Part shown: positions 935 through 34,840 of the stretch, one piece after another
Position numbering within the stretch: position 1 is the first letter of the stretch
Layout: every line of letters starts with the position of its first letter
Virus record (IMG/VR): IMGVR_UViG_2778261315_000002
Source: a virus
Lineage: Duplodnaviria > Heunggongvirae > Uroviricota > Caudoviricetes
Reading direction: 5' to 3' (one strand)
Length of the DNA stretch: 36,286 bases
Notes under the pieces: model-generated
Databases searched by the model: none
The model's input: only the letters and a program-made list of their open reading frames with translations
What the model was told of the DNA's origin: nothing
Made by a program: the position numbers and the translations under genes

Positions 935-2620
935 GTGAATATAAACGTCGCCGAATTGTTAAATGGGAATTACATTCTGTTATTATTTGTGGTCCTCGCG
1001 CTTGGGCTATGTCTCGGGAAATTACGACTTGGTTCGATCCAACTGGGTAATTCCATTGGCGTTTTAGTCGTATCGCTGTTATTAGGCCAACAACATTTCA
1101 GCATTAACACCGACGCGCTTAATCTTGGCTTTATGCTGTTTATTTTCTGCGTCGGGGTCGAAGCCGGACCGAACTTTTTTTCCATTTTTTTTCGCGATGG
1201 GAAAAATTACCTAATGTTAGCACTGGTGATGGTTGGCAGTGCGCTGGTGATCGCCTTAGGGTTAGGTAAGCTGTTTGGCTGGGATATTGGCCTGACGGCC
1301 GGTATGTTAGCTGGCTCTATGACGTCGACACCGGTTCTGGTCGGTGCTGGCGATACACTGCGTCATTCCGGCATGGAAAGCAGGCAGCTCTCACTGGCAC
1401 TGGATAATCTGAGCCTCGGGTATGCCTTAACCTATTTAATCGGTCTGGTGAGTTTGATTGTTGGTGCGCGTTACTTGCCGAAATTGCAGCATCAGGACTT
1501 ACAGACCAGCGCCCAGCAAATCGCCCGCGAACGTGGCCTGGACACTGATGCCAACCGTAAGGTTTATTTACCGGTGATCCGCGCCTACCGCGTCGGCCCG
1601 GAGCTGGTGGCCTGGACCGACGGCAAAAATCTGCGTGAACTGGGTATTTATCGACAAACTGGCTGCTACATTGAACGTATTCGACGTAACGGGATTCTGG
1701 CGAATCCAGACGGTGATGCTGTGCTACAAATGGGAGATGAAATAGCGTTGGTAGGCTATCCCGACGCCCACGCACGACTCGATCCCAGCTTCCGTAACGG
1801 CAAAGAAGTTTTCGATCGTGACCTTCTCGACATGCGTATCGTCACTGAAGAAGTGGTCGTTAAAAACCATAACGCCGTGGGCAAACGTCTCGCACAACTG
1901 AAGTTGACCGATCACGGTTGCTTCCTTAACCGCGTCATTCGTAGCCAGATTGAGATGCCGATAGATGACAACGTCGTGCTTAACAAAGGTGACGTTTTAC
2001 AAGTCAGCGGCGATGCCCGTCGCGTAAAAACCATCGCCGATCGCATCGGCTTTATCTCGATTCACAGCCAGGTCACTGACTTGCTGGCATTCTGCGCCTT
2101 CTTTGTTATTGGGCTGATGATCGGGATGATCACCTTCCAGTTCAGCACATTCAGTTTCGGCATGGGGAACGCTGCCGGGTTGTTATTCGCCGGAATTATG
2201 CTGGGATTTATGCGCGCTAACCACCCGACCTTCGGTTACATTCCGCAGGGTGCATTAAGCATGGTGAAAGAGTTCGGCTTAATGGTGTTTATGGCAGGCG
2301 TTGGTCTGAGCGCCGGTAGCGGTATTAATAACGGCCTGGGCGCGATTGGCGGTCAGATGTTGATTGCCGGATTGATTGTCAGTCTTGTGCCAGTGGTTAT
2401 CTGTTTCTTGTTCGGTGCTTATGTATTGCGAATGAACCGCGCACTGTTGTTCGGCGCAATGATGGGCGCACGCACCTGCGCGCCGGCAATGGAGATCATC
2501 AGTGATACAGCTCGCAGTAACATCCCGGCGCTGGGCTATGCGGGCACCTATGCAATCGCCAACGTCCTGCTGACGCTGGCAGGGACAATCATCGTCATGG
2601 TATGGCCAGGATTAGGATAA
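935..2620 (+). CDS. ybjL: Putative transporter YbjL (AAE-type permease with cytoplasmic regulatory domains)
   Basis: 561-aa ORF with GTG start ([24 protein letters not shown]...); two membrane halves flank a soluble central region; matches E. coli YbjL from memory. Confidence 0.85.
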
Positions 2621-2732
2621 AACTGAAGTTGCCCTGAAAATGAAATTTTTTTGCACAACCGCAGAACTTTTCCGCAGGGCATCAGTCTTAATTAGTGCCA
2701 CTGCTTTTCTTTGATGTCCCCATTTTGTGGAG

Positions 2733-2775
2733 CCCATCAACCCCGCCATTTCGGTTCAAGGTTGATGGGTTTTTT
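2733..2775 (+). terminator. Putative intrinsic terminator downstream of ybjL; host/prophage junction region
   Basis: Perfect 10-bp stem cccatcaacc (2733-2742) / ggttgatggg (2760-2769) followed by tttttt (2770-2775); the loop is long (17 nt). Confidence 0.45.
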
Positions 2776-2855
2776 GTTGCCTGAAATTTATGCTATTTAA
2801 AATCATGATGTTAGAAGCACTGTTTTTTAACGATGGCGACAAAATGGCGGCAGCG

Positions 2856-3074
2856 TCAAAGAGAGAGCGCCACCTGTCCTGATTTCATTGGATGCGGCTG
2901 AACCGGATTTGACTCTTTGGGCGTTGCAATCGAACGAACAAAAGTTTCATGGGTAACAAAAGTATGGCTGCAGTTAATATTCTGGCACTGGTTGTAACGC
3001 TCTTTGGTCAATGAAGATACCTGAAAACTGCTGCGAGTATGGGCGGCACTTCCACACAGTGGGCAAATCATCAT
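2856..3074 (-). CDS. ogr: Late-gene transcriptional activator, Ogr/Delta zinc-finger family (P2 Ogr / 186 B homologue)
   Basis: 72 aa from the ATG at 3074 (the track ORF extends upstream to 3107); CPLC...C..C zinc-finger pattern (MMICPLCGSAAHTRSS...ERYNQCQNINCSHTF) closely resembles P2 Ogr; GGGGAG Shine-Dalgarno upstream. Confidence 0.8.
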   Translation of the reverse strand: MMICPLCGSAAHTRSSFQVSSLTKERYNQCQNINCSHTFVTHETFVRSIATPKESNPVQPHPMKSGQVALSL

Positions 3075-3164
3075 TTTTCGAGTTCTCCCCATTTTTGCTA
3101 AATTCACAATAATGATACCGCATTATTCCATTTTGCAAACTTAAAAGTTCTCCATTGCGAAGAA

Positions 3165-4265
3165 TCATTCCATTTCGAAATCATCAATCCTCACTTCAAG
3201 CTCCAGACTGGTCGTAAAACCATTATCCGGGCTGACGGTATGTGTCAGAGTCGTAATGGTCCATTCCGCATCATCTATCGGCTGTTTAAAGCCACTGACT
3301 TTCACTGGCATTTCCGTGTAGAGATCTGCCCGCCCTTCCGCCAGTTGTAGCGAGAATGACGCAACGCCGCGTTGCAGGCGTTCCCACTGCATTTTTGCCG
3401 CTCGTTCGGCGTTGCTCCGGTTGGCATAAGTGCGATTAAGTACCAGCACGTTTTCATCCGTCCCCACCAGGTAATCGCCCTGCTTCGCTTCCGGCTCTTT
3501 CTTCTGCTTCTTGGTCCTGCGCTTACGCTTCACTGTAGTGCTTTCTTTCTTCGCAGGTTCGCGGGTATGCAACCAGCTGGCAATTACGCCCGTGTAGGCT
3601 CCGCGATCCGCCAGGGTAAAGCGGTGACTGTCGCCGTCCTTGCGTGTGATAGTGATCACCGGCAGTGGTTTACCGCTGGCACTTTTACCCTGTCCCTGCC
3701 GGATGAATAACAGATTGCCATTTTTCACCGACGCAATAGCACCGTACTGGCGCGCCAGCCGCATCAGAAAACTGCCGTCACTCTCATTAGTCTGGTCTAT
3801 ATGCTCCACGGGCTTATCCGACAGGTCTTTACCCAGTGCCATCTTCAGTTTGTGACGCGCAGCTATTTCCTTCACCACTTCCCCGACCGTGGTCTTGTGC
3901 CACGATTTTTCACGGCGGGTATTCAGCGTTTCCCGAAAATCAGCACTTCGCGCCCGGATGGTCAGGCGGTCCGGTGCGCCAGTGTGTTCAATCTCGTCCA
4001 CCGTGAATGCCCCTTTCGGGGAAAGCGGCTGCCCCTTCCAGCCCAGCGCCAGCGTAATGACCGCACCACGGCGCGGCAGCACGATTTTTCCGTCGGCGTC
4101 GTCCAGCTCCAGATCAAGCTGGTCAGCTTCAAAGCCCCGGTTATCCGTCAGCGTCAGCCCCATCAGGCGGTTGTCCAGCACAGTGGTGATATCCCTGCCT
4201 TCAATACTGATGCTGAATGCCGGAGTTTTGTTACCTTTGTTAAGCAGTTCAGAGCTGAAATTCAC
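3165..4265 (-). CDS. D: Tail protein D (late control D family)
   Basis: 366 aa; position and size match P2 gpD at the end of the tail operon; sequence resembles P2 gpD from memory. Confidence 0.8.
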   Translation of the reverse strand: MNFSSELLNKGNKTPAFSISIEGRDITTVLDNRLMGLTLTDNRGFEADQLDLELDDADGKIVLPRRGAVITLALGWKGQPLSPKGAFTVDEIEHTGAPDRLTIRARSADFRETLNTRREKSWHKTTVGEVVKEIAARHKLKMALGKDLSDKPVEHIDQTNESDGSFLMRLARQYGAIASVKNGNLLFIRQGQGKSASGKPLPVITITRKDGDSHRFTLADRGAYTGVIASWLHTREPAKKESTTVKRKRRTKKQKKEPEAKQGDYLVGTDENVLVLNRTYANRSNAERAAKMQWERLQRGVASFSLQLAEGRADLYTEMPVKVSGFKQPIDDAEWTITTLTHTVSPDNGFTTSLELEVRIDDFEME

Positions 4266-4747
4266 GACAGCAGCCCTCCCACCGTTTTACTGATATCGCT
4301 TAATGCAGACGTTGCCGTATCCTGCAGATTATTCAGTTGCGTACTGAGATCACCGAACATATCGGACAGGGATTCATCCACCCGTTTGAGCGACAGGGTG
4401 AACTCAATCCGGCGCGGCATACCGTCGCGGAAAAACTCCGTTTTAGTCAGATTCAGTCCCTCAATCACATACATGCCGTAAATCGTCCCACTGCCTTCAA
4501 TCAGGGGCCATGCTTTTCCCTGTTCTGCCATCTGCTCCAGAGCCAGCAACGACAGCCTGCCGCCCGTTATCTCCGGCATAAGAACACCAGAAAGCGTCAG
4601 CATGTCGTTGTCCGGTCCCAGAAACTGCGTGGACGGACGACGGTTTACCCGGCTGTTTGCCGCATGTCGCCAGCTGCGTTGATACTGCAGTTCCTGATAC
4701 GGAACGGTGCGCAGCATAAACACGTACAATCCCAGCACCATCATCAT
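4262..4747 (-). CDS. U: Tail protein U
   Basis: 161 aa, immediately downstream of T with a 4-nt overlap; P2 gpU size class. Confidence 0.75.
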   Translation of the reverse strand: MMMVLGLYVFMLRTVPYQELQYQRSWRHAANSRVNRRPSTQFLGPDNDMLTLSGVLMPEITGGRLSLLALEQMAEQGKAWPLIEGSGTIYGMYVIEGLNLTKTEFFRDGMPRRIEFTLSLKRVDESLSDMFGDLSTQLNNLQDTATSALSDISKTVGGLLS

Positions 4748-7700
4748 GCGTCGTAACCCCCCTGATCGCTGTAGTTACTCCTGGCTTTTGCCTTCAGCCT
4801 GCGTTCACGTTCATCAAGCTGGCGGGCCACCTCCCGCGCAATATCCTGCGCACTTTGTCCAGGCTGCGTCTGGATGATGATCTGCGTCGGTGCCTCAATC
4901 CTGTAAACGGGCGGCACAGTGGCTGCGCGACTCACCATCGCTTCTCCACCTTTCGCGGGAAGTGCCAAAGGGTGCAACGGTGGAAGCTCTGCTGGCGCGG
5001 CAGCAACGCCCATCATTCCGGCAACAACGGCAGCCAGTGCAGCTGTATTTCTCCGGCTGGTCACATTTGCCGGGCCATTAACAATTTCCGGCCCGTTTTC
5101 ACCGACGATGCCAAACTGCCCGCGCGGGATATACCCGCCGCTGTCATACATCCCCGCAAAGCCATATCCCCATGACGGAAAACCACCCGATGGCATCATC
5201 ACTTTACCGTCTGCATTCACCGTCGCAGTTTGCTGACGCGTCACGCTTTCCGGCAGTTTTGCCTTTGCGGCCTCTTTACTGACAATGCCGAGCTTCTCCA
5301 GCAACCAGGAAACGCCGGATTTCAGGGAGTCCAGCGGATGCATGACCATATTCAGCCCTTCCGCCAGTGCCTCCCCGAATCGTCGCCCCATTGCCGCTGC
5401 GCTCTGCAGTTCGGCAGAGGTCGACTTAACGGGCGTCAGCAGATCAGTAAACCAGCCCCACAGCGCCTGTACTTTGTCGCCAATCCACTGAAACACAGGC
5501 TTAAGTGGTTCGAATGCAGCACTGATGGGACCTGCCGCCGCTTTGAATCCTTCCACCACGCCACCGAGAAATGCGGTGATGGGTTGCCAGTATTTCCAGA
5601 CAACCAGCGCCACGCCCGCCAGTGCAGTAACCACAAGACCTATCGGACTGAGCAGAGCACCTAACAGACCAGATATGGCATACAGGGCAACGCGCAGCAT
5701 CACCAGCGGACCAGATGCAAGCACACGAAGCACCGCGCCTGCGGCAGCCAGTCCACCGCGCAGTACCGCCAGAGGATTCATAAACATCACAGCAACAGCA
5801 CGTAAAGCGGATAATCCAGACCGCAATAGTGCAACCGGCGCACCTGCTACAGTTTTCAGGACATTTCCCGTCAGTGATGCCGTACGGCGCAAAGACGACA
5901 ACGGCGCAGTAAGTAAACCCGCTGCATTACCCGCTGAAGCAAGCCCGTGTCGCAGCACTGCCAGTGGTGCGCCTGCCAGCCAGGACAACGCGTTGCTGGT
6001 TCGGGTTACTGCTGCCGTAACGGAAGGTAATGTTTTGATACCCAGCACAGAGAATCCCAGACGGATGACTGCCAGCGGCCCCAGCACTGCAGCCAGCGCC
6101 ACCGCTAAGGTGCCGAGGCCCACGGTAACGGCAGCCACCACAGCGGCTACTTTCATCAGAGTGCCCGTCAGTTCCGGGTTAGCTTCCACCCAGCGACGCA
6201 ACGCCCCCGTGACGCTTTTCACCGTGTACAGAATATCCATCAGCGGCTGGCGCAGCGTTTCGCCCAGGCTACTGAAGGTGTTCTGCGCTCCGGTTTTGAC
6301 CAGCAACCACTGAGCAGAAAGTGAGTCCTTATTGATGTCGGATTCTTTCTGCATGGAGCCGAGCGCATCATTGCCCGCTGTCAGTTTTAACTGACGCTGC
6401 AGTTCCGGCAGGTTGTTTGCCAGTTTCGCCGCGTCATCGCCAAACTCTTTACCAAACAACATGGTCATGGCAGACAGACGCTTATCCTGCGGCAGTGCGT
6501 TCACCTTCTCCAGCACACGCTGGATAGTTCCCATCGCATCCTTCGTCATCTGCTTTTCAATCACTTCAGGATTGAGTTTCAGCAGATTCATCCCTTCAAA
6601 GAAACTCTTGCTTTGCATGGTGGCAATGGACAATTCACGCACCATCGCGTTTGCTGCACTGGCTGCAACCTCTGGCGCAGCACCCAGTGTCAGGAAGGTG
6701 GAACCCAGCGCCGCCGCTTTACGATAATCCAGACGATCAGCCACACTGCCCAGGCGTTGCATGACATCAATGATGTCTGCCCCTTTCGACATGGCGTTAT
6801 CATCCAGATAGTTCAGCGCATCACCGACCTGTTCAATATTGCGGGTAGGGATTTTGTAGAGCTGGGCGATTTTCCCCAGACTTTCTGACAGTTCATCCGC
6901 TGGCAGCTCAAAGGCTGTTGCCGCCTTTGCTGCCGTGCTGGCGAAGGCCAGCAGGTCACGTTTCTGGTCTTCCCAGCTGTCGTCAGGGTTTGCGACGTTC
7001 ATGCGCGCACCACCTTCAACCAGTGCAGCGAAGTCTACCGCACCGTTTTCCATCGGCAACTGTTCACTGGCAGCCTTGATGGCATCCTGCATTTCATAAA
7101 AACGTGCAGTGCGGTTGCCATTATCGTCACGCAGACCATTGACCTGCTTTGCCACACCTTTCATGGCATCTTCCATGCTGGTATAGCTTTTTACTGCCGC
7201 CATCACTGGCGTCCCCATTGCCAGCCCTGCAGCCGTGGTGGTGGCTCCGGCTCCTGCGATGCGATCGCGCACCTCCAGCGAACGGGCATAACTGGCACGC
7301 GCTGCATTCATCCTGCGCTGAGCTTCCCCCAGTCGCTTCAGCCGCGCCTCCTGTTTCGACAGTTCCTGGTTATAACGTGATGTTTCACGGGCTAAACGGG
7401 CAGTTGCTCCCGCATCATCTTTCGCAGAAATTCCCGCCCGGTACAGTTCTGCACGCACAAGCGCCGTTTGCTTCTGCAAATATTTTTGTTGTTCTTCCAG
7501 ACGTTGGACTGCCAGCGTTTGCCGACCTAAAGCTACAAGGTGCCGTTGTGATGGTTGTTCCATCGACTCCAGCTCAGAGCTAAGCAAATTAGCTTTCTGT
7601 CTGGCATAGTTCAGCCTGTCGCCTAACTTCTTGTTATCGGCCTGCAGCTTGCGAAATTTTTCCAGGCTGTTACCCGCCTGATTGAGTTGCTTTAATGCGT

Positions 7701-10144: not shown

Positions 10145-10711
10145 TCAGGGGGATTCATTGCTCTTATTTGCCGGAAATTTTCTATAAATTGTGGAAACAC
10201 CCACATCAAAAATCAGTGCAATACGCTGTCTTGATTCTCCGGCCTCGAGTAAACGCCCAATCTGTGCCCACTGTTCGGTGGTCAACTTAGGACGGCGTCC
10301 ACCTACTCTGCCTTTGGCACGAGCTGCAGCCAGCCCTGCCCTGGTACGTTCAACTATCAGTTCGCGTTCCATTTCAGCCAGGGCACCCATGACATGAAAA
10401 AAGAAACGGCCCATTGGGGTGCTGGTATCAATACTGTCAGTCAGGCTTCGGAAATTCACGCCTTGCTGACGCAACTCTTCTATCAGCGTAACAAGATGCC
10501 GCATACTGCGCCCCAACCTGTCCAGCTTCCAGACAACCAGCGTGTCTCCTGCCGATAGTGTCCTGAGCAGTTTTTTCAACCCTGGTCTGTCGGACTTAGT
10601 GCCACTGATTTTATCCTCAAAAATCCGCTCACATCCCGCGCAGTTCAGTGCATTACGTTGCAAATCGGTGTTCTGGTCATTTGTTGACACGCGTACATAG
10701 CCAATAAGCAT
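10145..10711 (-). CDS. Site-specific DNA invertase, serine recombinase (Hin/Gin/Cin/Pin family)
   Basis: 188 aa from the ATG at 10711 (MLIGYVRVSTNDQ...DRLGRS...C-terminal HTH); near colinear with Hin/Gin as I recall them; the track ORF extends 15 codons upstream to 10756. Confidence 0.9.
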   Translation of the reverse strand: MLIGYVRVSTNDQNTDLQRNALNCAGCERIFEDKISGTKSDRPGLKKLLRTLSAGDTLVVWKLDRLGRSMRHLVTLIEELRQQGVNFRSLTDSIDTSTPMGRFFFHVMGALAEMERELIVERTRAGLAAARAKGRVGGRRPKLTTEQWAQIGRLLEAGESRQRIALIFDVGVSTIYRKFPANKSNESP

Positions 10712-10766
10712 GAGCATCCCCCTGAATAAAAACCGGGGATGATGCCAGTTAACCATTATCTCTGCA

Positions 10767-10792
10767 TTTTCATAAACGTTGGTTTGGGAGAA
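10767..10792. repeat. Invertase crossover site, invertase-proximal (gix/hix-like, 26 bp)
   Basis: Reverse complement TTCTCCCAAACC-AA-CGTTTATGAAAA matches the site at 12453-12478 at 22 of 26 positions (first 14 identical) and fits the Hin-family site architecture of two imperfect inverted half-sites around a 2-bp core. Confidence 0.75.
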
Positions 10793-11365
10793 GGCTCTGC
10801 ATTACCTGTTGGTGTCCCTGTTCCGTGGCCTTCAGCCACTCCGCCAACAGGCTGGCTGAAATGCAATGGTGCGGCTTTTTCTGCTGAAGAATACCCGGAA
10901 CTGGCAAAGGCTTACCCGACAAATAAATTGCCAGATTTACGTGGTGAGTTTATTCGTGGCTGGGATGACGGGCGAGGGATTGATGAGGGGCGCATACTTC
11001 TCAGTTGTCAGAGTTTTGCTTTCCAGGACCATGCGCACGCTCTGCCAACCGGAGTGGGTAATCCGTCAGACCAGATGGAAAGCGATATCTATGCGGTTTT
11101 CAACGATGTACCAGAAATACCCAGTGCGGCCCTGAGTCCATCGTCGTCAGGAACATCATGGGACGCAACCAGTAGGGCAGACAAGGTAATCCTTTATCGC
11201 AAGGACCTTTCACCAACAGGTAATAACAACGCAATAGCGACCGGATTACCACCATTCAGGACTTACAGGGCATCGACCTCAGACGGTGTTACTCATCCGT
11301 CCGTGTACGCATCTGAAACCCGTCCGCGCAACATTGCATTTAACTACATCGTGAGGGCTGCATAA
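10781..11365 (+). CDS. Alternate tail-fibre C-terminal cassette (promoterless; fuses to the constant part of H after inversion); P2 gpH C-terminus-like
   Basis: Frame open from the crossover site; encodes GLGE-GSALPVGVPVPWPSATPPTGWLKCNGAAF...LPDLRGEFIRG...NIAFNYIVRAA, resembling the P2 gpH C-terminal region. The GLGE junction matches LGLGE in H at its crossover site. The ATG at 10739 in the track is probably not a real start. Confidence 0.7.
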   Translation, partial: GLGEGSALPVGVPVPWPSATPPTGWLKCNGAAFSAEEYPELAKAYPTNKLPDLRGEFIRGWDDGRGIDEGRILLSCQSFAFQDHAHALPTGVGNPSDQMESDIYAVFNDVPEIPSAALSPSSSGTSWDATSRADKVILYRKDLSPTGNNNAIATGLPPFRTYRASTSDGVTHPSVYASETRPRNIAFNYIVRAA

Positions 11366-11970
11366 TGGCGAAAGCAAAATTAAACAGTGCGTTTATTGCC
11401 ACCGTGGCAGGAGAAATCACTGTGTACAACTACCGGGGCGACACCCGCGAATACATATCCTCATCGGTTGAGTATCTGCCTGTGGGGGTGGGTATTCCTG
11501 CCAATTCCTGTACCGATGCGCCCGGCACACATAAGGCTGGTTATGCAATCTGCCGTTCTGCAGATTTTAACTCATGGGAATATGTGCCAGACCATCGCGG
11601 TGAAATTGTCTATGGCATCGAAACGGGGGAATCAAAAGAAATTACTGTGCCGGGGGATTACCCTGAAAATACGACCACTTTTGCCCCATTAACGCCATAC
11701 GATAAATGGGATGGTGAGAAATGGGTAACAGATACCGAGGCACAGCATAGCGCCGCAGTAGATGCAGCAGAAGTACAGCGCCAGTCTCTGATTGATGCTG
11801 CTATGGCTTCCATCAGTCTGATTCAGCTGAAATTGCAGGCCGGACGTAAACTGACGCAGGCAGAAACAACCCGCCTTAACGCTGTGCTGGATTACATTGA
11901 CGCGGTGACGGCAATAGATACCAGCACCGCGCCTGATATTATTTGGCCTGTATTCCCTGAGACTGATTAA
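11365..11970 (+). CDS. Tail fibre assembly chaperone (Tfa / Mu U' type), cognate to the alternate fibre cassette
   Basis: 201 aa, start overlapping the cassette stop (TAATG); C-terminal ...DTSTAPDIIWPVFPE typical of Tfa chaperones; opposite orientation to the tail operon, as expected inside an invertible segment. Confidence 0.7.
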   Translation: MAKAKLNSAFIATVAGEITVYNYRGDTREYISSSVEYLPVGVGIPANSCTDAPGTHKAGYAICRSADFNSWEYVPDHRGEIVYGIETGESKEITVPGDYPENTTTFAPLTPYDKWDGEKWVTDTEAQHSAAVDAAEVQRQSLIDAAMASISLIQLKLQAGRKLTQAETTRLNAVLDYIDAVTAIDTSTAPDIIWPVFPETD

Positions 11971-16005: not shown

Positions 16006-16821
16006 TCAGAGAGATGCTGTTTTGTTGAAGTAATCCTTCAATAACTCCATCTTAAAGATGACCTGGAGTTTACAACCGGGAAATGAATCATTTACAGTTA
16101 CAGTCATCCCCAGGAACTCAGACTGAACCTTTATCAAATCATTAGGTATTTTGTGAAGAATATCTCTAACTTCTTTCTCTACCGTTGTGGGAACCAAGTC
16201 AAAACTAACAATAAACTCACTTGACGAATTATGCTGAACTTTAGACTTTATTTCCTTTAAAGCTTTTTTAGACAAGTTGAGAATATCAAAAACTTTCTCA
16301 AGATTATCAAATAAAACATACCTGCGTTCAAAATCAACAACCTTAGCTGCTAATTCATTAAAATCAGTTCTGAGCCGCCCCCTAGCACCCACAGCTGATT
16401 GCAAAGACCTAAATGCAAACTCCAATTTAGATGCCATATTGGCCTCAATTGCATTCAGATTACAAATAGGTTGAGGCAACTCTTTAAAAACCATGCCCGA
16501 ATGGCAGAAAGGAAGTGTAGGAATATCTCCCAAACCAGCATTCTGATTTAGGGTATTTCTTATCCAGACAGCCCCTAATTCAAAGCTAATCCAACTTCTT
16601 TTCACAGAATTAGGACTGATTAAATATATAGCCGCAATACAATTAACAAGGCCATCTTCTATTACTTTTAGGAAATTTTGCCCAGCCTTAATCGTTTCTC
16701 CATCTGAAGATACAAAAACGCTGACAAATCCAGCAAACTCATCTTCGATTGCATCTTTAATGATTTTTGCCAATTCTTTTTCTTCAGTAATATGAGATAA
16801 AAAAATCAACTTCTCAGACAT
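16006..16821 (-). CDS. Cargo protein with N-terminal TIR-like domain and uncharacterised ~160-aa C-terminal domain (candidate anti-phage defence gene)
   Basis: 271 aa from the ATG at 16821 (AGAGAG Shine-Dalgarno; the track ORF starts at a TTG at 16839). N-terminus KLIFLSH...VSVFVSSDGETIKAGQNFL...IAAIYLISPNSVKRSWISFELG fits the TIR pattern. Region is markedly AT-rich and interrupts the S-V junction, which is contiguous in P2. Confidence 0.55.
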   Translation of the reverse strand: MSEKLIFLSHITEEKELAKIIKDAIEDEFAGFVSVFVSSDGETIKAGQNFLKVIEDGLVNCIAAIYLISPNSVKRSWISFELGAVWIRNTLNQNAGLGDIPTLPFCHSGMVFKELPQPICNLNAIEANMASKLEFAFRSLQSAVGARGRLRTDFNELAAKVVDFERRYVLFDNLEKVFDILNLSKKALKEIKSKVQHNSSSEFIVSFDLVPTTVEKEVRDILHKIPNDLIKVQSEFLGMTVTVNDSFPGCKLQVIFKMELLKDYFNKTASL

Positions 16822-16937
16822 CACATACTCTCTAACCAATTGATAGATTTACAATTTAGCAAGAAAGAAAATGTGATACTAAGAAGAAGATCATAAAATC
16901 AGTATCTTCCCCAAAGAATCTTTCTCTAATCAGCACC

Positions 16938-22884: not shown

Positions 22885-24651
22885 ATGAACACCACACTGA
22901 CACCCGCAGATCTCGATCCCCGTCGGCAGGCGATGCTGCTGTACTTTCAGGGATACCGCGTAGCCCGCATTGCTGAAATGCTGGGCGAGAAAGTTGCAAC
23001 CGTTCACAGCTGGAAAAAACGCGACAAGTGGGGTGACTATGGGCCGCTGGATCAGATGCAGCTCACCACCGCCGCACGCTACTGCCAGCTCATCATGAAG
23101 GAGCACAAAGAAGGGAAAGATTTCAAAGAGATTGACCTGCTGGCGCGCCAGTCTGAGCGCCACGCGCGGATCGGCAAGTTTAACAATGGCGGCAACGAAT
23201 CCGACTTAAACCCTAACGTCGCCAACCGCAACAAAGGCCCACGCCGTCAGCCGGAAAAGAATGTTTTCACCGATGAGCAGATTGAGAAGCTGGAAGAAAT
23301 CTTCCATTCCTCCATGTTCAACTACCAGCGCCACTGGTGGGAAGCCGGAAAAACCAACCGCATCCGCAACCTGCTGAAGTCACGCCAGATCGGCGCGACC
23401 TTTTACTTTGCCCGTGAAGCCCTGATTGACGCCCTGCTTACCGGACGTAACCAGATTTTCCTTTCCGCCAGTAAGGCACAGGCTCACGTCTTTAAGCAGT
23501 ACATCATAGACTTCGCCAAAGAAGTCGAGGTGGAGCTGAAAGGCGATCCGATGGTGCTTCCCAACGGGGCCACGCTTTACTTCCTCGGCACCAATGCCCG
23601 CACGGCCCAGAGTTACCACGGCAACCTTTATCTGGATGAATATTTCTGGATACCGAAATTCCAGGAGCTGCGCAAAGTGGCTTCCGGTATGGCTATTCAC
23701 AAAAAATGGCGACAAACCTATTTTTCCACGCCATCCAGCCTGACACACAGTGCTTATCCGTTCTGGTCCGGTGCGCTGTTCAACCGTGGGCGCAACAAAG
23801 CCGATAAGGTGGACATCGACCTGTCCCACAGCAATTTGGCCCCCGGCCTGCTGTGCGCAGACGGGCAATACCGCCAGATAGTCACCGTGGAAGATGCGGT
23901 GCGCGGCGGCTGTAACCTGTTCGACCTTGACCAGTTGCGCATGGAGTACAGCCCGGACGAATACCAGAACCTGCTGATGTGCGAATTTGTGGACGATCTC
24001 GCGTCCGTGTTTCCGCTCAGCGAGCTGCAGGCGTGCATGGTGGACAGTTGGGAAGTCTGGAGCGACTTTCATGCACTGGCTCTGCGCCCGTTTGGCTGGC
24101 GCGAAGTGTGGATCGGTTATGACCCGGCAAAAGGTACGCAGAACGGCGACAGCGCCGGATGCGTGGTGGTGGCACCGCCAGCCGTGCCGGGCGGTAAGTT
24201 CCGCATTCTTGAGCGTCACCAGTGGCGCGGGATGGACTTCCGCGCCCAGGCGGACGCCATCAAAAAACTGACCGAACAGTACAACGTGACATATATCGGC
24301 ATCGACTCGACGGGTGTCGGTCACGGGGTTTATGAGAACGTGAAAGCGTTTTTTCCAGCCGTCCGGGAGTTTGTCTACAACCCCAACGTTAAAAACGCCC
24401 TGGTACTCAAGGCCTACGACATTATCAGTCACCGTCGTCTGGAGTTTGACGCCGGACACACCGACATAGCGCAGTCATTTATGGCAATCCGTCGTGCCAC
24501 CACAGCCAGCGGCAACCGCCCGACCTATGAAGCCAGCCGCAGCGAAGAAGCCAGCCATGCCGATCTGGCCTGGGCAACAATGCACGCACTGTTTAACGAA
24601 CCGCTGCAGGGCGAGTCCGCCAATACCAGCAATATTGTGGAGATTTTTTGA
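22885..24651 (+). CDS. P: Terminase large (ATPase) subunit P
   Basis: 588 aa; divergent from O as in P2; an internal Met 16 codons in is an alternative start. Confidence 0.85.
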   Translation: MNTTLTPADLDPRRQAMLLYFQGYRVARIAEMLGEKVATVHSWKKRDKWGDYGPLDQMQLTTAARYCQLIMKEHKEGKDFKEIDLLARQSERHARIGKFNNGGNESDLNPNVANRNKGPRRQPEKNVFTDEQIEKLEEIFHSSMFNYQRHWWEAGKTNRIRNLLKSRQIGATFYFAREALIDALLTGRNQIFLSASKAQAHVFKQYIIDFAKEVEVELKGDPMVLPNGATLYFLGTNARTAQSYHGNLYLDEYFWIPKFQELRKVASGMAIHKKWRQTYFSTPSSLTHSAYPFWSGALFNRGRNKADKVDIDLSHSNLAPGLLCADGQYRQIVTVEDAVRGGCNLFDLDQLRMEYSPDEYQNLLMCEFVDDLASVFPLSELQACMVDSWEVWSDFHALALRPFGWREVWIGYDPAKGTQNGDSAGCVVVAPPAVPGGKFRILERHQWRGMDFRAQADAIKKLTEQYNVTYIGIDSTGVGHGVYENVKAFFPAVREFVYNPNVKNALVLKAYDIISHRRLEFDAGHTDIAQSFMAIRRATTASGNRPTYEASRSEEASHADLAWATMHALFNEPLQGESANTSNIVEIF

Positions 24652-25676
24652 TGGGAAAGAGTAAAAAGAACCGCGCTGCGTCGACGAACCAGATCCAGCA
24701 TAAAAGCCAGACTTCAGCCGAAGCATTCAGCTTTGGTGATCCCATTCCTGTACTGGACCGCCGCGAACTGCTGGACTATGTGGAATGCGTACAGACGGAT
24801 CGCTGGTATGAGCCACCCGTAAGTTTTGACGGACTGGCGCGCACCTTCCGCGCTGCCGTGCATCACAGTTCCCCGATTGCAGTAAAGTGCAACATTCTGA
24901 CCAGTACCTATATCCCTCATCCGCTGCTCAGCCAACAGGCTTTTTCGCGTTTTGTGCAGGACTATCTGGTATTTGGTAACGCCTACCTGGAGAAACGCAC
25001 GAACCGATTCGGTGAAGTTATCGCCCTTGAGCCTGCGCTGGCAAAATACACCCGACGTGGGTTAGACCTGGATACCTACTGGTTTGTGCAATACGGTATG
25101 ACAACCCAGCCGTATCAGTTCACGAAAGGCAGCATTTTTCATCTGATGGAACCGGACATCAACCAGGAGATCTACGGCCTGCCAGGCTATCTTTCTGCCA
25201 TTCCATCCGCCCTGCTCAACGAGTCTGCCACGCTGTTCCGCCGTAAGTATTACATCAACGGCAGCCATGCAGGCTTCATCATGTACATGACCGACGCCGC
25301 GCAGAATCAGGAGGATGTGAACAATCTCCGCAACGCGATGAAAAGCGCCAAAGGTCCAGGCAACTTCCGCAACCTGTTTATGTACTCGCCTAATGGCAAA
25401 AAGGACGGCCTTCAGATCATCCCTTTGTCAGAAGTTGCGGCGAAGGATGAGTTTCTGAATATCAAAAATGTCAGCCGCGATGACATGATGGCAGCACATC
25501 GCGTTCCGCCACAGATGATGGGGATAATGCCTAATAATGTTGGGGGTTTTGGGGATGTGGAGAAGGCAGCAAATGTGTTTGTGCGAAATGAGTTATTACC
25601 CCTGCAAAAGCGTTGTTTAGAATTAAATGAATGGAGTAAAAAAGAACTCATACGGTTTGAGAGATACAGTTTATAA
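24651..25676 (+). CDS. Q: Portal protein Q
   Basis: 341 aa from the ATG at 24651, overlapping the P stop (TGATG); P2 gpQ size and position. The last ~25 codons lie in AT-rich sequence. Confidence 0.85.
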   Translation: MGKSKKNRAASTNQIQHKSQTSAEAFSFGDPIPVLDRRELLDYVECVQTDRWYEPPVSFDGLARTFRAAVHHSSPIAVKCNILTSTYIPHPLLSQQAFSRFVQDYLVFGNAYLEKRTNRFGEVIALEPALAKYTRRGLDLDTYWFVQYGMTTQPYQFTKGSIFHLMEPDINQEIYGLPGYLSAIPSALLNESATLFRRKYYINGSHAGFIMYMTDAAQNQEDVNNLRNAMKSAKGPGNFRNLFMYSPNGKKDGLQIIPLSEVAAKDEFLNIKNVSRDDMMAAHRVPPQMMGIMPNNVGGFGDVEKAANVFVRNELLPLQKRCLELNEWSKKELIRFERYSL

Positions 25677-25695
25677 AATCCAAAAAAACATAAAA

Positions 25696-25715
25696 ATGGC
25701 CGCTTAAACGGCCAT
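25696..25715 (-). terminator. Intrinsic terminator of the cargo operon
   Basis: Hairpin atggccg-cttaaa-cggccat; on the minus strand it is followed by TTTTTATGTTTTTTT, directly after the stop of the membrane-protein gene. Confidence 0.55.
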
Positions 25716-25720
25716 CCTTA

Positions 25721-26404
25721 TTAATTTGAAGAATCTTTTTTGAAGGTATCCAAATACCCTCTCAAATCAAAATCTTTATTACCCCTAAATTTTTCAACAT
25801 CTTTCTTGTCTGCATCTCTTTGTTCTCTAATCTTCTTGTTTAGTTTTTCAATCAAAGATTGTCTTTCGGCCTCTATTTCTTTTATTTTTTCAAAATGGAG
25901 TTTCGCCTTTCGTGCTTCTTCAGTCTTTACAATTATTTCATAACAAACACACAAAAGAAAACAAACCGTGGAAACGGTCATCCCTGCATCCACAACTATG
26001 AAGTAACCAATATCAACATTTTCTTTTATCTTATCTAAAGGCACAATCAAACATCCAAGAACCATAAAAAGCCCCACCACAAGATAAATAAAATTAATAG
26101 AGTTACGATAACTCAATTTAAAATATTCATCTTTTTGAGCTTCAAATAATTCCACCACATTACTTGGAGCCTTACTGTTTAACTCAATATCTTTAATCTT
26201 ATCCTGATAATCCACAAATCTTTTTACCAGCAAACCAATTAAAATAGCACCAATTAAAGATAATGCTTTAGATATAAGAGAACCAATTTCTAACAATATA
26301 CCAGTCTGATTGTAAATCCCATAAAAAACAGAAGCGAAAAGTCCCCCTATCAAGATAGATAAGCTCAACTGTATAATAAAACGCTCTATTCTTTTATTAA
26401 TCAT
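25721..26404 (-). CDS. Cargo operon gene 2: small integral membrane protein (4 predicted TM helices, Lys/Glu-rich coiled-coil tail); candidate defence or abortive-infection effector
   Basis: 227 aa from the ATG at 26404, which overlaps the upstream stop (ATGA); hydrophobic stretches FIIQLSLSILIGGLFASVFYGIY, ILLEIGSLISKALSLIGAILIGLLV, FIYLVVGLFMVLGCLIVPL, GYFIVVDAGMTVSTVCFLLCVCYEIIV; AT-rich. Confidence 0.5.
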   Translation of the reverse strand: MINKRIERFIIQLSLSILIGGLFASVFYGIYNQTGILLEIGSLISKALSLIGAILIGLLVKRFVDYQDKIKDIELNSKAPSNVVELFEAQKDEYFKLSYRNSINFIYLVVGLFMVLGCLIVPLDKIKENVDIGYFIVVDAGMTVSTVCFLLCVCYEIIVKTEEARKAKLHFEKIKEIEAERQSLIEKLNKKIREQRDADKKDVEKFRGNKDFDLRGYLDTFKKDSSN

Positions 26405-27396
26405 GGATTTATCACCCCAGCATCCAACAACCTTAACAACCATTCAACCATTTCATCACAAACACTATCAACAACTGGTAAACCCTTACTATATTCAATG
26501 CTAACATTGTCTTTTATTTGAATCTCATCATTTTTCAAAATCCCTGCACCTTTTAACTCAATAGTCAACATTTCATCCCTGTTATCAATTAGCCCCTCGG
26601 TTATCTTCCGAAGTAAATCTTGCTCATTATCACTGGCTCGATATTTATAACCAATAGAAATATCAATTGTAAGGTGTTCCTTTATTTCTGTATCAGGGGT
26701 ACTGTTTTTACGCAATTCTTCAACACGATGCTCACCAATTAAAGAACGCAATAACTCACTAGCAGCATCGTCAACGCCATTACCATTATATGTCAACGGC
26801 AGTTTTAAACTAACATTTTTAATGTTATTTCTTCTCAAGAATTCATTACTAATGCTTAAATTATTTGCCTGCAAAACAATAAAGTTTTCAACATCTACTC
26901 GTAGATTTTCCTTTAAAATAAAATTAATGTAATTTTCAATGTCTTTTATTCTTATTGCTCTACTTTGTAAAATCACGACATGATTCTTAACAACACCAAT
27001 ATAGGCAAAACTATCCAAATATTCTTTAACATCGCCACCCGCAATTCTGAAAGCCTCATATTCCAATTTCGGATTTTTATATTCCGTAACATCAAATACT
27101 GGAATACTTCCGCCAGGCTCTATGTACACAATTTCTGCAAAGAACATTCCGTTACGTTCAAATGAATTTGACATAACCATATGAGCATGCGTTGCCACAT
27201 CAGGATCAGAGTCCTTCGTTTCTAGAAAATGAACTCTATCTTGAACAGTACGAAACTTATGAGTCACAATCTCAGATAATCTGCTTTGTAAGTCTGATGT
27301 TAAAAGTGCATCTTTTTTAGGAAGCATAACTGCATGTCTGTAATGCAGTGCCTTGATTTTGGTATTGTTAGCAGCCATATAATTTCCAGTTTCCAT
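26401..27396 (-). CDS. Cargo operon gene 1: soluble protein of unknown function (candidate defence sensor or enzyme)
   Basis: 331-aa ORF (alternative ATG 6 codons in); no motif I can assign; AT-rich; translationally coupled to the downstream membrane protein. Confidence 0.5.
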   Translation of the reverse strand: METGNYMAANNTKIKALHYRHAVMLPKKDALLTSDLQSRLSEIVTHKFRTVQDRVHFLETKDSDPDVATHAHMVMSNSFERNGMFFAEIVYIEPGGSIPVFDVTEYKNPKLEYEAFRIAGGDVKEYLDSFAYIGVVKNHVVILQSRAIRIKDIENYINFILKENLRVDVENFIVLQANNLSISNEFLRRNNIKNVSLKLPLTYNGNGVDDAASELLRSLIGEHRVEELRKNSTPDTEIKEHLTIDISIGYKYRASDNEQDLLRKITEGLIDNRDEMLTIELKGAGILKNDEIQIKDNVSIEYSKGLPVVDSVCDEMVEWLLRLLDAGVINP

Positions 27397-27483
27397 TCTA
27401 TATTATGCTTTTTTACATAATACCTGCATAACTCAAAAGCATCTACGATCTTAATCGCACATACTAAAGCCTACCTACGCGCG

Positions 27484-27502
27484 CTCGTATCCCCGCCACG
27501 CC
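27484..27502 (-). other. Candidate cos (cohesive-end) sequence
   Basis: Minus strand reads GGCGTGGCGGGGATACGAG; first 13 nt match the P2/186 cohesive-end sequence as I recall it (GGCG[A/T]GGCGGGGAAAGCA[C/T]), 15 of 19 against the 186 form; lies in a 310-bp non-coding stretch. Confidence 0.35.
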
Positions 27503-27705: not shown

Positions 27706-27939
27706 TTAATGCAGCCAGCTGTCGTCTTCCCACACCTTCTGCATAATTTTCATCACTTGTTTTCTTTCTTCGTCCAGTTGCAGTCCGGTCAGTTCCACAC
27801 CGTTAGAGCTACCTTTGCGGATACGAATTACCGTTTTGGGATACAGGGGGCGCAGATTGCGGTAAAGCTCGGATTCAAGGGCGTCCAGTGTAGACTGGCT
27901 AACCTTCTGCTCTTTATCGATCATTATTTCAATGCGCAT
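27706..27939 (-). CDS. DinI-family protein
   Basis: 77 aa from the ATG at 27939 (GAGGTGA Shine-Dalgarno): MRIEIMIDKEQKVSQSTLDALESELYRNLRPLYP...WEDDSWLH, colinear with E. coli DinI from memory. Confidence 0.75.
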   Translation of the reverse strand: MRIEIMIDKEQKVSQSTLDALESELYRNLRPLYPKTVIRIRKGSSNGVELTGLQLDEERKQVMKIMQKVWEDDSWLH

Positions 27940-30663: not shown

Positions 30664-31493
30664 TACGCAATCTCCAGTTCGAGCTGTGAAGGCTGCAAAC
30701 CATTCGACAGCCAATCAGAAACTGAAGGTGGGCGAACAGCTTCAATTGCACCTTTTAAAATTGCGCAACGGTTTTTCAGAATGACAGCTTTCAGCTCCTT
30801 TTCCGTCAGATTGCGCGAATACTCAGCCTCCTGAATAGCCCGCGTCAGCTCAGGATATTTGCTATTAAATTTGGGGACATTGCAGGCAAGATTTGTACTG
30901 TCGGCAGTCGCCAGTGGGTAATTTCCCAACACACGACCGTCAAGCATGCGCAAACCATGAACAGCTGTTTTGAAATTGTGTCGGCAATAAATTGCTTCAA
31001 AAGCGTCCTGCATACGACGATGCCAGTGCGCAGTTCTGATAGCCGCATATTCACCAGACGATCCAAAGCAGACACGAGGCCATTCACGACATAGCTCGAT
31101 AAGCCGATCGATTGACTCGTGCAGATGCCAGACCGGAGTTGCCTTCCCGTAGAACATTTTCGGAACTTCGTTTATCAGGGCATCATTGTCACGTTCACCT
31201 CCGTCCACAACATCAGGAATGACAAAAAAAGCGACCTTAGGATGGTGGTAATAGTTCAGGAGCCATTTATAAAAATCACTCCAGTTAATTTTTAGCCCAC
31301 GCACCCATGCAGAAAATGCGCCGTTATCAATGCCGACGACCTGAGCGTGCTGAATGGACGCCGCAATCTGATCTGGTCGTACATAGGATACGAAAGCGCC
31401 AGCTCCGCTCACCGCAATACGATGAACGTCGCCAGCACTTCCCCAGACAGGCGTCCCATGGAAATGATGAATTCCGTGGTGCATTTCTTTCAC
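30663..31493 (-). CDS. Hypothetical protein between dam and A; possible TIM-barrel transglycosylase-like (TGT/DpdA-like) DNA-modification enzyme, speculative
   Basis: 276-aa ORF overlapping both neighbours (GTGA with the dam stop, TAATG with the A start). Motifs [17 protein letters not shown] and LATADST loosely parallel the three Asp-containing motifs of tRNA-guanine transglycosylases; this is a weak, by-eye resemblance only. Confidence 0.3.
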
Positions 31494-32344
31494 ACTTGCA
31501 CCCCGAAAATAACAGTAGAGTCACGTCCCCTACTAAAATCGGCACTAAACCAATTAGCAGATTTAGTGGCAATCATCTCTGTTGCAAATTTTCCCTCCCC
31601 CGCTGCAACGCCGATGCTGCGTTTCGCCCTGATGTAGTGGTGAGTGAAATTACGATAAAGGGACCGGGTCAAAGACGTGTTACTGTTAGAAACAATGACC
31701 GGATGTCCTTCTGATGACCGATGTTCAAGAATGGATGCCAGGTGATACTGATCATCTTCAGTGAAACCATCAGTGCGATAGCCGGAAAACGTACCGTCAT
31801 AAGGCGGATCGCAATACACCACATCCCCCACCTTCAACATCGCCAGCGTTTCATCAAAGCTGGCGCAGATAAACGTTGCCCGCTGGGCTTTCTCTGCAAA
31901 TGCGCGAATTTCTTTTTCAGGGAAATACGGATTTTTATAATTACCGTAGGGAATGTTGAAATGCCTGCTCTTGTTATAGCGACATAAACCACGGTAACCG
32001 TGACGATTGAGATACAGGAAATATACCGCTTTCATGAAATCAGTAATTTCAGTGGAGTAATTAAACTCCTGCCTTATGTTGTAATAAGCCACCTCCCTGT
32101 TTGCTTCCTCAAATAAAGCTCTGGCACGAGATATAAACGCCTCACAATCAGCAGCAACCTTTTTATAGAGGTTGATTAAATCAGGATTAATATCCGCAAC
32201 AAGATAGCTGGGATAATCCGTCTCCATCATCACTGCACAGGAACCCGCGAAAGGTTCAACCAGTCGCGGGCCAGCAGGAAGATGCTTTTTCAGTTCGGAC
32301 ATTATGGCGGTTTTATTTCCTGCCCATTTCAGGATGGTGCTCAT
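31490..32344 (-). CDS. dam: DNA N6-adenine methyltransferase (Dam family)
   Basis: 284 aa from the ATG at 32344 (GGAGGTG Shine-Dalgarno; ATGA overlap with the upstream stop): KWAGNK, FAGS and DPPY motifs. Confidence 0.85.
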
Positions 32345-32568
32345 ACAGCACCTCCGTTGTAATGTTTGCCTTTCAGCTCTGCGATTTCCTGACAGGTAAT
32401 GCAAAGCTGCACACCCGGAATGGCACGGCGGCGTGCTGGCGGAATTGGCGCTTCACACTCAACGCAAAGCACGCGGGACACGCCCGGCGTTTTGGCACGG
32501 GCAGCACGGATATGGCGTTGGCGTTCTTCTTCAACGCGCTGCTGTACGAGATCCATTGCATCAGCCAT
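32341..32568 (-). CDS. TraR/DksA-family C4 zinc-finger protein
   Basis: 75 aa with CVEC...CITC pattern. Confidence 0.65.
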   Translation of the reverse strand: MADAMDLVQQRVEEERQRHIRAARAKTPGVSRVLCVECEAPIPPARRRAIPGVQLCITCQEIAELKGKHYNGGAV

Positions 32569-34264: not shown

Positions 34265-34270
34265 GTGACC

Positions 34271-34840
34271 ATGAATTTGGAGAAAGGCGGACGAGGCGCT
34301 ATAGAGCGCATGGTAGAAGCTTATGGATTCAAAACTCGACAGGCGTTGTGCGATCATTTAGGAATCTCTAAAAGTACACTCGCCACACGCTACATGCGTG
34401 ACTCATTCCCAGCAGAATGGGTAATCCAGTGCGCCCTTGAAACGGGCACCTCGCTTAATTGGCTCACAACCGGACATGGTTCAAAGCAAACTTCAGGTAA
34501 TACAAATACTATGGAAGTTGCTAAATATGTATTATCTGATGGTGCCTTGCGTGAAGACGGTTTTTATATTTTTGATAAGGGATTTCTACCCTCTACGTTT
34601 AAAAAACCTTTTGTCATCACAGATAACAATTCTGAATTTATTTGTGATAAAGAATTTGATGATATACGTGACGGTAAATGGGTAATAAGTATTGATGGCG
34701 AAATAACAATCCGCGACATTACTCGTTTACCCGGTGGAAGAATCTTCGTTGAAGGTGGAAACAGAGCCTTCGAGTGCAAGATAGAAGATGTTGAAATAAT
34801 TGGGAAAATTATAAGTTTAACAATTAAGTACGTTAGGTAA
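34271..34840 (+). CDS. cI: Immunity repressor CI (186 CI-like; N-terminal HTH)
   Basis: 189 aa from the ATG at 34271 (GGAG Shine-Dalgarno; the track starts at a GTG at 34265); HTH QALCDHLGISKSTLATRYMR; AT-rich C-terminal domain; position between the switch and int. Confidence 0.7.
   Translation: MNLEKGGRGAIERMVEAYGFKTRQALCDHLGISKSTLATRYMRDSFPAEWVIQCALETGTSLNWLTTGHGSKQTSGNTNTMEVAKYVLSDGALREDGFYIFDKGFLPSTFKKPFVITDNNSEFICDKEFDDIRDGKWVISIDGEITIRDITRLPGGRIFVEGGNRAFECKIEDVEIIGKIISLTIKYVR

Follow-up and report, generated by a model that had tools for sequence, protein, structure and literature searches.

Two AT-rich genes beside the cos-like site of a P2-like prophage most likely form a divergent RexAB-type module

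The locus analyzed here raises the question of what two AT-rich genes do between the portal gene and the candidate cos site of a P2-like prophage. The window (the whole stretch of viral DNA that was analyzed, 36,286 nucleotides, IMG/VR record IMGVR_UViG_2778261315_000002) had received a first-pass annotation from its letters alone, in which the two genes were described as a soluble protein followed by a small multi-pass membrane protein, a layout regarded as common among abortive-infection systems. The cassette is most likely a divergent RexAB-type module that was previously unannotated, and the block as a whole probably acts as a prophage-borne, two-component phage exclusion module of that type. 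No phage exclusion system has been known for longer than RexAB.

The block consists of two open reading frames on the minus strand, one at 26401-27396 (331 aa from its first ATG) and one at 25721-26443 (240 aa from its first ATG), which are called A and B here (table 1). The longest frame of A starts at 27396 and encodes the 331-aa protein that was reported first; the reading frame stands, but the length is more likely 325 aa, judged by alignment, as the second ATG (27378) is the start in all 17 aligned homologues. For B, the ATG at 26404 is shared by all 8 homologues, which gives the 227 aa originally proposed. The ATGA overlap between the two genes that had been noted from the sequence is present and is identical in 12 out of 12 close relatives. 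In RefSeq, where both proteins are hypothetical, this coupling is hidden because B is annotated from the upstream ATG with 240 aa. The clean intrinsic terminator described earlier was recovered immediately behind B, in a region with 6 terminator-like sites compared with 1.7 expected from shuffled sequences. The core hairpin at 25696-25715 also forms a stem on the plus strand, where it follows the portal gene. Between positions 25600 and 27400 the GC content is 0.28-0.38, compared with 0.51-0.60 for the genes of the terminase and the portal protein, in line with the low-GC block seen at the outset; summarized for the block and its flanks, the values are about 0.30-0.37 and about 0.54. A simple promoter scan of the leader found no sigma-70 consensus promoter upstream of A, and transcription of the pair in the prophage from further upstream, across cos, would be possible.

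Table 1. Coordinates of the A/B block and its flanks in the window.
Feature	Coordinates	Strand	Description
Portal gene (P2 Q / 186 W homologue)	24648..25676	+	ORF; left boundary of the variable block
Intrinsic terminator	25690..25721	-	directly after the B stop codon; 14-pair stem, loop of 4, then the T run GTTTTTTTGG
Gene B	25721..26404	-	227-aa inner-membrane protein (predicted), 4 TM segments; start common to 8 homologues
ATGA overlap, A stop codon/B start codon	26401..26404	-	read from the sequence; translational coupling
Gene A	26401..27378	-	325 aa (more likely length), soluble, acidic (pI 5.4), predicted RexA-like fold
Leader, cos-like site to A start	27379..27483	-	about 105 nt; only room for a dedicated promoter
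Cos-like site	27484..27502	-	right boundary of the variable block
DinI-like gene	27706..27936	-	Pfam DinI, E 6.5e-23; conserved flank beyond cos

The right boundary of the block is set by the sequence GGCGTGGCGGGGA at 27502-27490, which occurs once in the window (0.01 occurrences expected) and is identical to nucleotides 1-13 of the phage 186 cos end (15 out of 19 nucleotides match overall, by manual count). The left boundary is the portal stop codon at 25676; identical E. coli records label the product of this gene phage portal protein. At most 200 nt separate the end of the portal gene from cos in P2 and 186, whereas 1.8 kb of foreign DNA is inserted there in the window, and similarity to other prophages resumes at about 27462-27478. 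The CI repressor of the window is located at 34265-34840, away from the A/B pair.

Among 5426 complete E. coli genomes, only 4 contain the A/B block whereas 1276 contain the adjacent DinI/cos flank. The interval between gpQ and gpA was compared across related prophages, a check that the first-pass annotation had proposed, and in three prophages that share the backbone this position is taken by unrelated cargo, namely a STAS-like set of three genes, a PIN-domain protein, and three hypothetical proteins. The alternative cargo in these three prophages is all on the same strand. The block is thus variable cargo, located beside cos in the gpA-gpQ interval and exchanged for other genes in sister prophages, and the supposed variable region of P2-like phages corresponds to the cos-proximal hotspot that Rousset et al. 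2022 (PMC9122126) defined between gpA and gpQ.

Proteins A and B were compared with collections of sequence families. Pfam, NCBIfam, and PADLOC (version 2.0.0, 2023) gave no meaningful match for either A or B, consistent with the earlier failure to place the proteins in a named family, and Pfam gave no match for A, B, or 141 family members. DUF3908, TerB_C, and ZorB1 (E 0.0036, over one TM helix) appeared in the scans of A and B as chance-level matches. The sole real match of A was phrog_3482 in PHROGs, to which no function is assigned. At 90% identity, the close relatives of A group into ~25 clusters, with members in E. coli, Enterobacter, Aeromonas, Vibrio, Aliivibrio, and Pseudomonas, and an exhaustive profile search extended this close family to a broad family of at least 510 clusters at 50% identity (E<=1e-3), 296 of which were found at E<=1e-10. 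Nearly all of the proteins among the matches listed are 300-380 aa long, and cluster look-ups for ten distant relatives returned "hypothetical protein" only. Across 141 aligned sequences, the near-invariant residues are Y13, R48, E148, and W313 only, and this alignment contains no conserved nuclease or other catalytic signature.

The structure of A was modeled with AlphaFold2 from 23 sequences (pLDDT 71, pTM 0.71), which resulted in confident N- and C-terminal thirds and a weaker middle, the would-be dimerization domain, at low confidence (pLDDT ~50-69). A structure search, likewise among the checks proposed earlier, was informative: two RexA chains were the only PDB matches of Foldseek at E<=1e-3 (E 5e-5, probability 1.00). 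The alignment covers the full length (~330 columns), and its low TM-score is expected because the fold consists of two hinged domains; the model agrees with the RexA plan in 165 aligned residues and in the order of its secondary-structure elements. This plan, the RdgC-related RexA fold, consists of a split globular domain and an inserted dimerization domain, and A is predicted to be a soluble protein with the same two-domain fold. In BFVD, the Foldseek matches were four uncharacterized proteins of siphoviruses, at E-values between 1e-10 and 7e-6, and RdgC at a weak level, with no named function among them. Profiles of A built from 23 and 141 sequences gave no match against the PDB sequences.

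Protein B contains four hydrophobic segments (about 9-27, 36-60, 105-123, and 135-159). Its N-terminus carries positive charge, TM2 and TM3 are linked by a charged loop of 44 aa, and the 68 residues of the tail, 20 K/R and 16 D/E among them, are modeled as a single long helix, in agreement with the four TM helices and charged tail originally predicted. The overall model is all-helical and of low confidence (pLDDT 60). The best-conserved parts are the cytoplasmic loop (61-104) and the proximal tail (160-200), and the least-conserved part is the second periplasmic loop. The conserved loop and tail would suit a cytoplasmic interface with A. Overall, B evolves faster than A: relatives with 90-92% identity in A have 58-69% identity in B, and 65% identity in A is accompanied by 29% in B.

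The likeness of the A/B pair to RexAB is one of fold, architecture, gene order, and context. In both systems the soluble gene comes first and the membrane gene second, and B, a predicted four-TM inner-membrane protein encoded directly downstream of A, shares with lambda RexB the four TM segments, the positive-inside topology, and the arrangement of TM1-TM2, a charged cytoplasmic loop, and TM3-TM4, along with ends that are positively charged. The differences are considerable. A (325 aa) is acidic with a pI of 5.4 whereas lambda RexA (279 aa) is basic with a pI of 8.6, and DNA binding by A is therefore not to be assumed. B has 227 aa with the 44-aa conserved loop and the 68-aa charged tail, whereas lambda RexB has 144 aa and short loops, with no counterpart to these large conserved cytoplasmic parts. 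A and B overlap by ATGA while lambda rexA and rexB are separated by a 15-nt gap, and the pair is located at the P2 cos-proximal hotspot while lambda rexAB is part of the immunity operon.

Sequence membership in the RexAB family was examined with a comparison set consisting of lambda RexA and RexB, a four-member RexA alignment, and two P4-hotspot RexA proteins from the tables of Rousset et al. The PADLOC RexA and RexB models recognized lambda RexA (9e-110) and lambda RexB (8.6e-61) as controls and gave no match to A or B. Comparisons of A with lambda-type and P4-type RexA proteins by hhalign and hmmsearch remained at E>0.1, and hhalign of the B alignment with RexB gave a probability of 0.2%. 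The pair is accordingly left outside the RexAB sequence family because none of the profile methods applied links A or B to RexA or RexB.

The two genes were followed through their relatives. The order of A, ATGA overlap, and B is retained in 12 out of 12 close relatives, and a membrane partner is encoded downstream of the A homologue in all three distant phages considered (an Stx2 phage, SfIV, and an Acinetobacter phage), so that the partner is retained in 15 out of 15 loci. The SfIV copy is interrupted by IS1. In 52 of 54 distinct IMG/VR relatives, the neighboring ORF on the same strand encodes 139-208 aa (~170 aa) and contains 3-5 hydrophobic segments (exactly four in 44 cases); the A gene is disrupted in the two that lack the partner. 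Members of the close family occupy the gpA-gpQ site in P2-like prophages of E. coli and, in a P2-like prophage of Pseudomonas, the stretch from gpD to the repressor; others follow the primase of an Aeromonas P4-like satellite or are located in a Klebsiella satellite-like island and in Vibrio prophage regions. The pair has a lower GC content than its surroundings in every close relative (0.41 compared with 0.57 in Pseudomonas). Overall, the two genes travel together as low-GC cargo of defense hotspots.

In the broad family, a repressor with HTH_3 and Peptidase_S24 domains is located directly upstream on the same strand in at least 8 out of 32 diverse loci, and the Acinetobacter phage phi1_092021 displays the same layout with the repressor directly upstream of the A homologue. 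The depositors of phi1_092021 labeled this A homologue "DefenseFinder protein." While the pair in the window is not preceded by a repressor, the layout of the distant members, which follow the repressor in an immunity operon, is that of lambda cI-rexA-rexB. The genomic context of the A/B pair points to an exclusion module that is expressed in the lysogen. With the match between the A model and RexA and the strict conservation of the pair, the initial reading as an abortive-infection layout of a soluble and a small multi-pass membrane protein gains support, and a protective function would fit both.

The same contexts bear on a different role for the pair, as a housekeeping or lifestyle module of the prophage that tunes the lysis-lysogeny switch or induction, or that excludes only close P2-like phages at DNA entry. 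Lambda RexA is reported to bias the bistable switch without a need for RexB (PMC11077077), many distant relatives of the pair occupy the immunity operon directly after the repressor, and the pair in the window adjoins cos. Against this, the rarity of the block relative to its flank in E. coli genomes, its replacement by unrelated cargo, and its occurrence in satellites and unrelated Vibrio prophages argue against a role that is tied to the regulation of one phage, and a housekeeping function is considered distinctly improbable.

If the pair is a RexAB-type exclusion module, as is judged probable here, its mechanism can be modeled on those of lambda RexAB, P. putida RexABpp, and V. cholerae Sucellos. 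A would be made in the lysogen and would serve in the cytoplasm as the sensor for infecting phages. On activation, A would engage the conserved cytoplasmic loop and tail of B, and B would then permeabilize or depolarize the inner membrane, so that growth stops, the infection aborts, and the clonal hosts of the prophage are protected. Given its acidic pI, A may respond to a phage protein or to a complex of protein and DNA and not to naked DNA; a protein trigger is reported for the CarolAnn and Sbash systems (PMC12894663).

The main rival to this mechanism consists of the same parts with the roles swapped, as in Butters gp30/gp31 or Kiwa: A would be the effector against the phage and might, for example, bind its DNA or replication forks, while B would only anchor, sequester, or sense at the membrane. 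RexA and RdgC, to which the RexA fold is related, are DNA-binding proteins (PMC11077077), the RexA-like protein of mycobacteriophage Butters is the effector and is restrained by its membrane protein (PMC12894663), the four-TM protein of Kiwa senses while its soluble dimer binds DNA, and the conserved loop and tail of B are equally suited to docking. However, A is acidic and lacks a conserved catalytic signature among the 141 sequences, and the membrane protein is the effector in most of the characterized Rex-type systems (PMC12894663). Swapped roles are thus rather unlikely, and the reading of A as sensor and B as effector is preferred.

Two recent studies have reported that fold-level relatives of RexA do defend. 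RexABpp of Pseudomonas putida is encoded by PP_5643 and PP_5644, and HHpred links PP_5643 to RexA with 98% probability while no profile-level link between A and RexA was found with hhalign or hmmsearch. RexABpp, which is set beside the A/B pair by its description only, is located near a prophage repressor, unlike the pair in the window. The second system, Sucellos of Vibrio cholerae (SclA/SclB), has a Rex-like fold, escapes the Pfam model of RexA, depends on both of its genes, and is predicted to form a membrane pore (10.1101/2024.07.02.601686); its genes are probably VCA0367-0368, to judge from primer names. Sucellos is an integron cassette, whereas the Vibrio relatives of A that were examined are located in prophage-like regions and not in integrons; outside Vibrio, Sucellos is reported mostly from prophages (10.1101/2024.07.02.601686). 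No V. cholerae protein is among the close homologues of A, and Sucellos is likened to the A/B pair by its published description and not by sequence.

These two systems also bear on the idea of a toxin-antitoxin or addiction cassette that stabilizes the mobile element, with B as membrane toxin and A as antidote. The small size and translational coupling of the two genes, their location on mobile elements, and the potential toxicity of the membrane protein would fit such a cassette. However, a 325-aa protein with a predicted RexA fold is unlike known antitoxins, and no such family was matched in Pfam, NCBIfam, or PADLOC. Furthermore, single-gene deletions or single-gene constructs of RexABpp and Sucellos lost defense, and the RexB effector of RexABpp is described as normally muted (PMC12894663). 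The addiction cassette is for these reasons regarded as very improbable.

Kiwa had been named in the first-pass annotation as a system with similar components and the opposite gene order. On paper the parts of KwaA/KwaB do resemble those of the A/B pair, a four-TM protein (~200 aa) and a soluble protein (~320 aa), and a Kiwa system with swapped gene order was considered. The four-TM gene kwaA is located upstream in Kiwa, opposite to the A/B order, and KwaB consists of a Rossmann-like domain and DUF4868, a fold different from that of A. PADLOC and Pfam gave no match of A or B to DUF4868, KwaA, or KwaB, and an HMM profile of A did not match the KwaB sequence. KwaB was also absent from the fold searches with A, in libraries for which the presence of KwaB is unconfirmed, as the KwaB sequence itself found no match among the PDB sequences. 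The comparison with Kiwa does not hold at the level of sequence or fold, and the probability of such a relationship is close to negligible. The defense-profile scan that had been proposed as a check gave no meaningful PADLOC match to A or B, in agreement with the unplaced family of the initial description.

The RexAB-type reading places A in a large Rex-type family (at least 510 clusters at 50% identity) that is missed by Pfam, NCBIfam, and PADLOC and that occurs in two settings, lambdoid immunity operons after the repressor and swappable cargo of P2/P4 hotspots. The value of the result is the exposure of this large unannotated family rather than a new principle. To our knowledge, it is still open after 70 years how a lambda RexA-like sensor talks to its membrane effector. 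If the family protects, its natural variation (90% identity in A alongside 58% in B, and the long conserved tail of B) would be available to study the dialogue between sensor and effector, and sensitive profiles for defense annotation would become possible. Rex-type defense would then be common rather than rare; only five Rex-like systems had been described by the count of a 2026 paper (PMC12894663). A more far-reaching reading is doubtful: the A/B family might be an independent Rex-type branch, unlike lambda Rex, in which the acidic A would sense a phage protein and not DNA, signal via parts of B that are absent in lambda RexB, the large conserved cytoplasmic loop and the coiled-coil tail, and gate a membrane pore. 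With its at least 510 clusters, such a branch and not canonical RexAB would then supply most of the Rex-type modules in temperate phages of the Proteobacteria, and current defense-annotation tools would miss it.

A pair of the A/B type has already been catalogued, unannotated, by Rousset et al. 2022. System no. 72 in their Table S5B is located in the P2 hotspot with 58 occurrences, no domains, and the note "4 TM in protein 1," and the entry holds no domain, Rex link, or test result. It pairs a homologue with 65% identity to A, the same protein as P0007, with a four-TM protein of 228 aa. Rousset et al. also cloned three other two-gene cassettes from the P4 hotspot, each with a RexA-like or hypothetical protein and a four-TM protein (PMC9122126); these three were presumably not reported as protective, because the main text makes no mention of Rex. 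The system 72 pair was seen in a 186-like prophage at the same site as the A/B pair. The variant in the window, with its 4 complete genomes, is the rarer of the two, and its B protein shares only 29% identity with that of the 65%-identical relative.

The two genes of the cassette have diverged at very different rates. Compared with the copies in the window, B (the four-TM membrane partner) in three other loci has diverged far faster than A (the soluble protein with a predicted RexA-like fold), showing 58–69% identity where A shows 90–92%, and 29% where A shows 65%. Because identity drops faster in B than in A, the sequence comparison suggests either that partners have been swapped or that B evolves quickly. 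The B gene is annotated in RefSeq as encoding 240 aa from an upstream ATG, a start that makes the two genes overlap by 43 nt and masks the conserved ATGA coupling (A stop codon/B start codon); the homologous sequences support the 227-aa start instead. The first ATG of A is closely preceded by a short inverted repeat, a possible operator or RNA element.

In many distant relatives, an A-like gene and a 4-TM partner are located directly 3' of a CI-type repressor gene (HTH + Peptidase_S24) on the same strand, a layout identical to lambda cI-rexA-rexB. In Shigella phage SfIV, an IS1 insertion has shortened the homologue's membrane partner to 108 aa, and this copy of the module is therefore probably inactive. 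The Stx2-converting phage Stx2a_1447 carries a distant A-like and 4-TM pair, transcribed against the late operon, with the Q antiterminator on one side and, on the other, the Shiga-toxin phage genes for DNA methylase and tRNA along with stx2.

The portal-cos site of sister prophages is occupied by different unannotated cargo, which represents candidate further defence systems. The window itself contains a second low-GC island (GC 0.35 vs about 0.55) within the tail and baseplate gene block; the 277-aa product encoded there carries a TIR_2 domain (Pfam E 5e-8), and its gene is probably a second defence cargo of the same prophage. Elsewhere in the window, tail-collar and tail-fibre-assembly genes adjoin a serine invertase gene on the opposite strand, an arrangement suggestive of an invertible switch for tail-fibre host range, and the early region encodes a methyltransferase.

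Locations of the features in the window and in the compared loci (L numbers)
Feature	Location	Strand
A and B as compared	window 25721-27378; L009 6001-7661; L010 7027-8687; L023 7001-8667	
B, RefSeq start	window 25721-26443; L109 1622-2344	
Inverted repeat ATTATG-N8-CATAAT	window 27397-27440	-
Repressor, then A-like + 4-TM pair	L001 3061-5517	same strand
Repressor, then A-like + 4-TM pair	L045, L048, L056, L066, L067, L086, L096, L098, about 2600-5100 in each	same strand
SfIV homologue	L003 2405-4324	
Stx2a_1447 pair	L002 2356-5570	
Hypothetical/STAS-like/hypothetical trio	L024 3988-5866	
381-aa PIN-domain protein	L025 4691-5836	
Three hypothetical proteins	L026 3644-5862	
TIR_2 gene, second low-GC island	window 16006-16839	-
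Serine invertase (Resolvase + HTH_7 domains)	window 10145-10756	-
Invertase and tail-fibre genes	window 10145-11970	
D12-class (Dam-type) N6-adenine DNA methyltransferase	window 31490-32404	-
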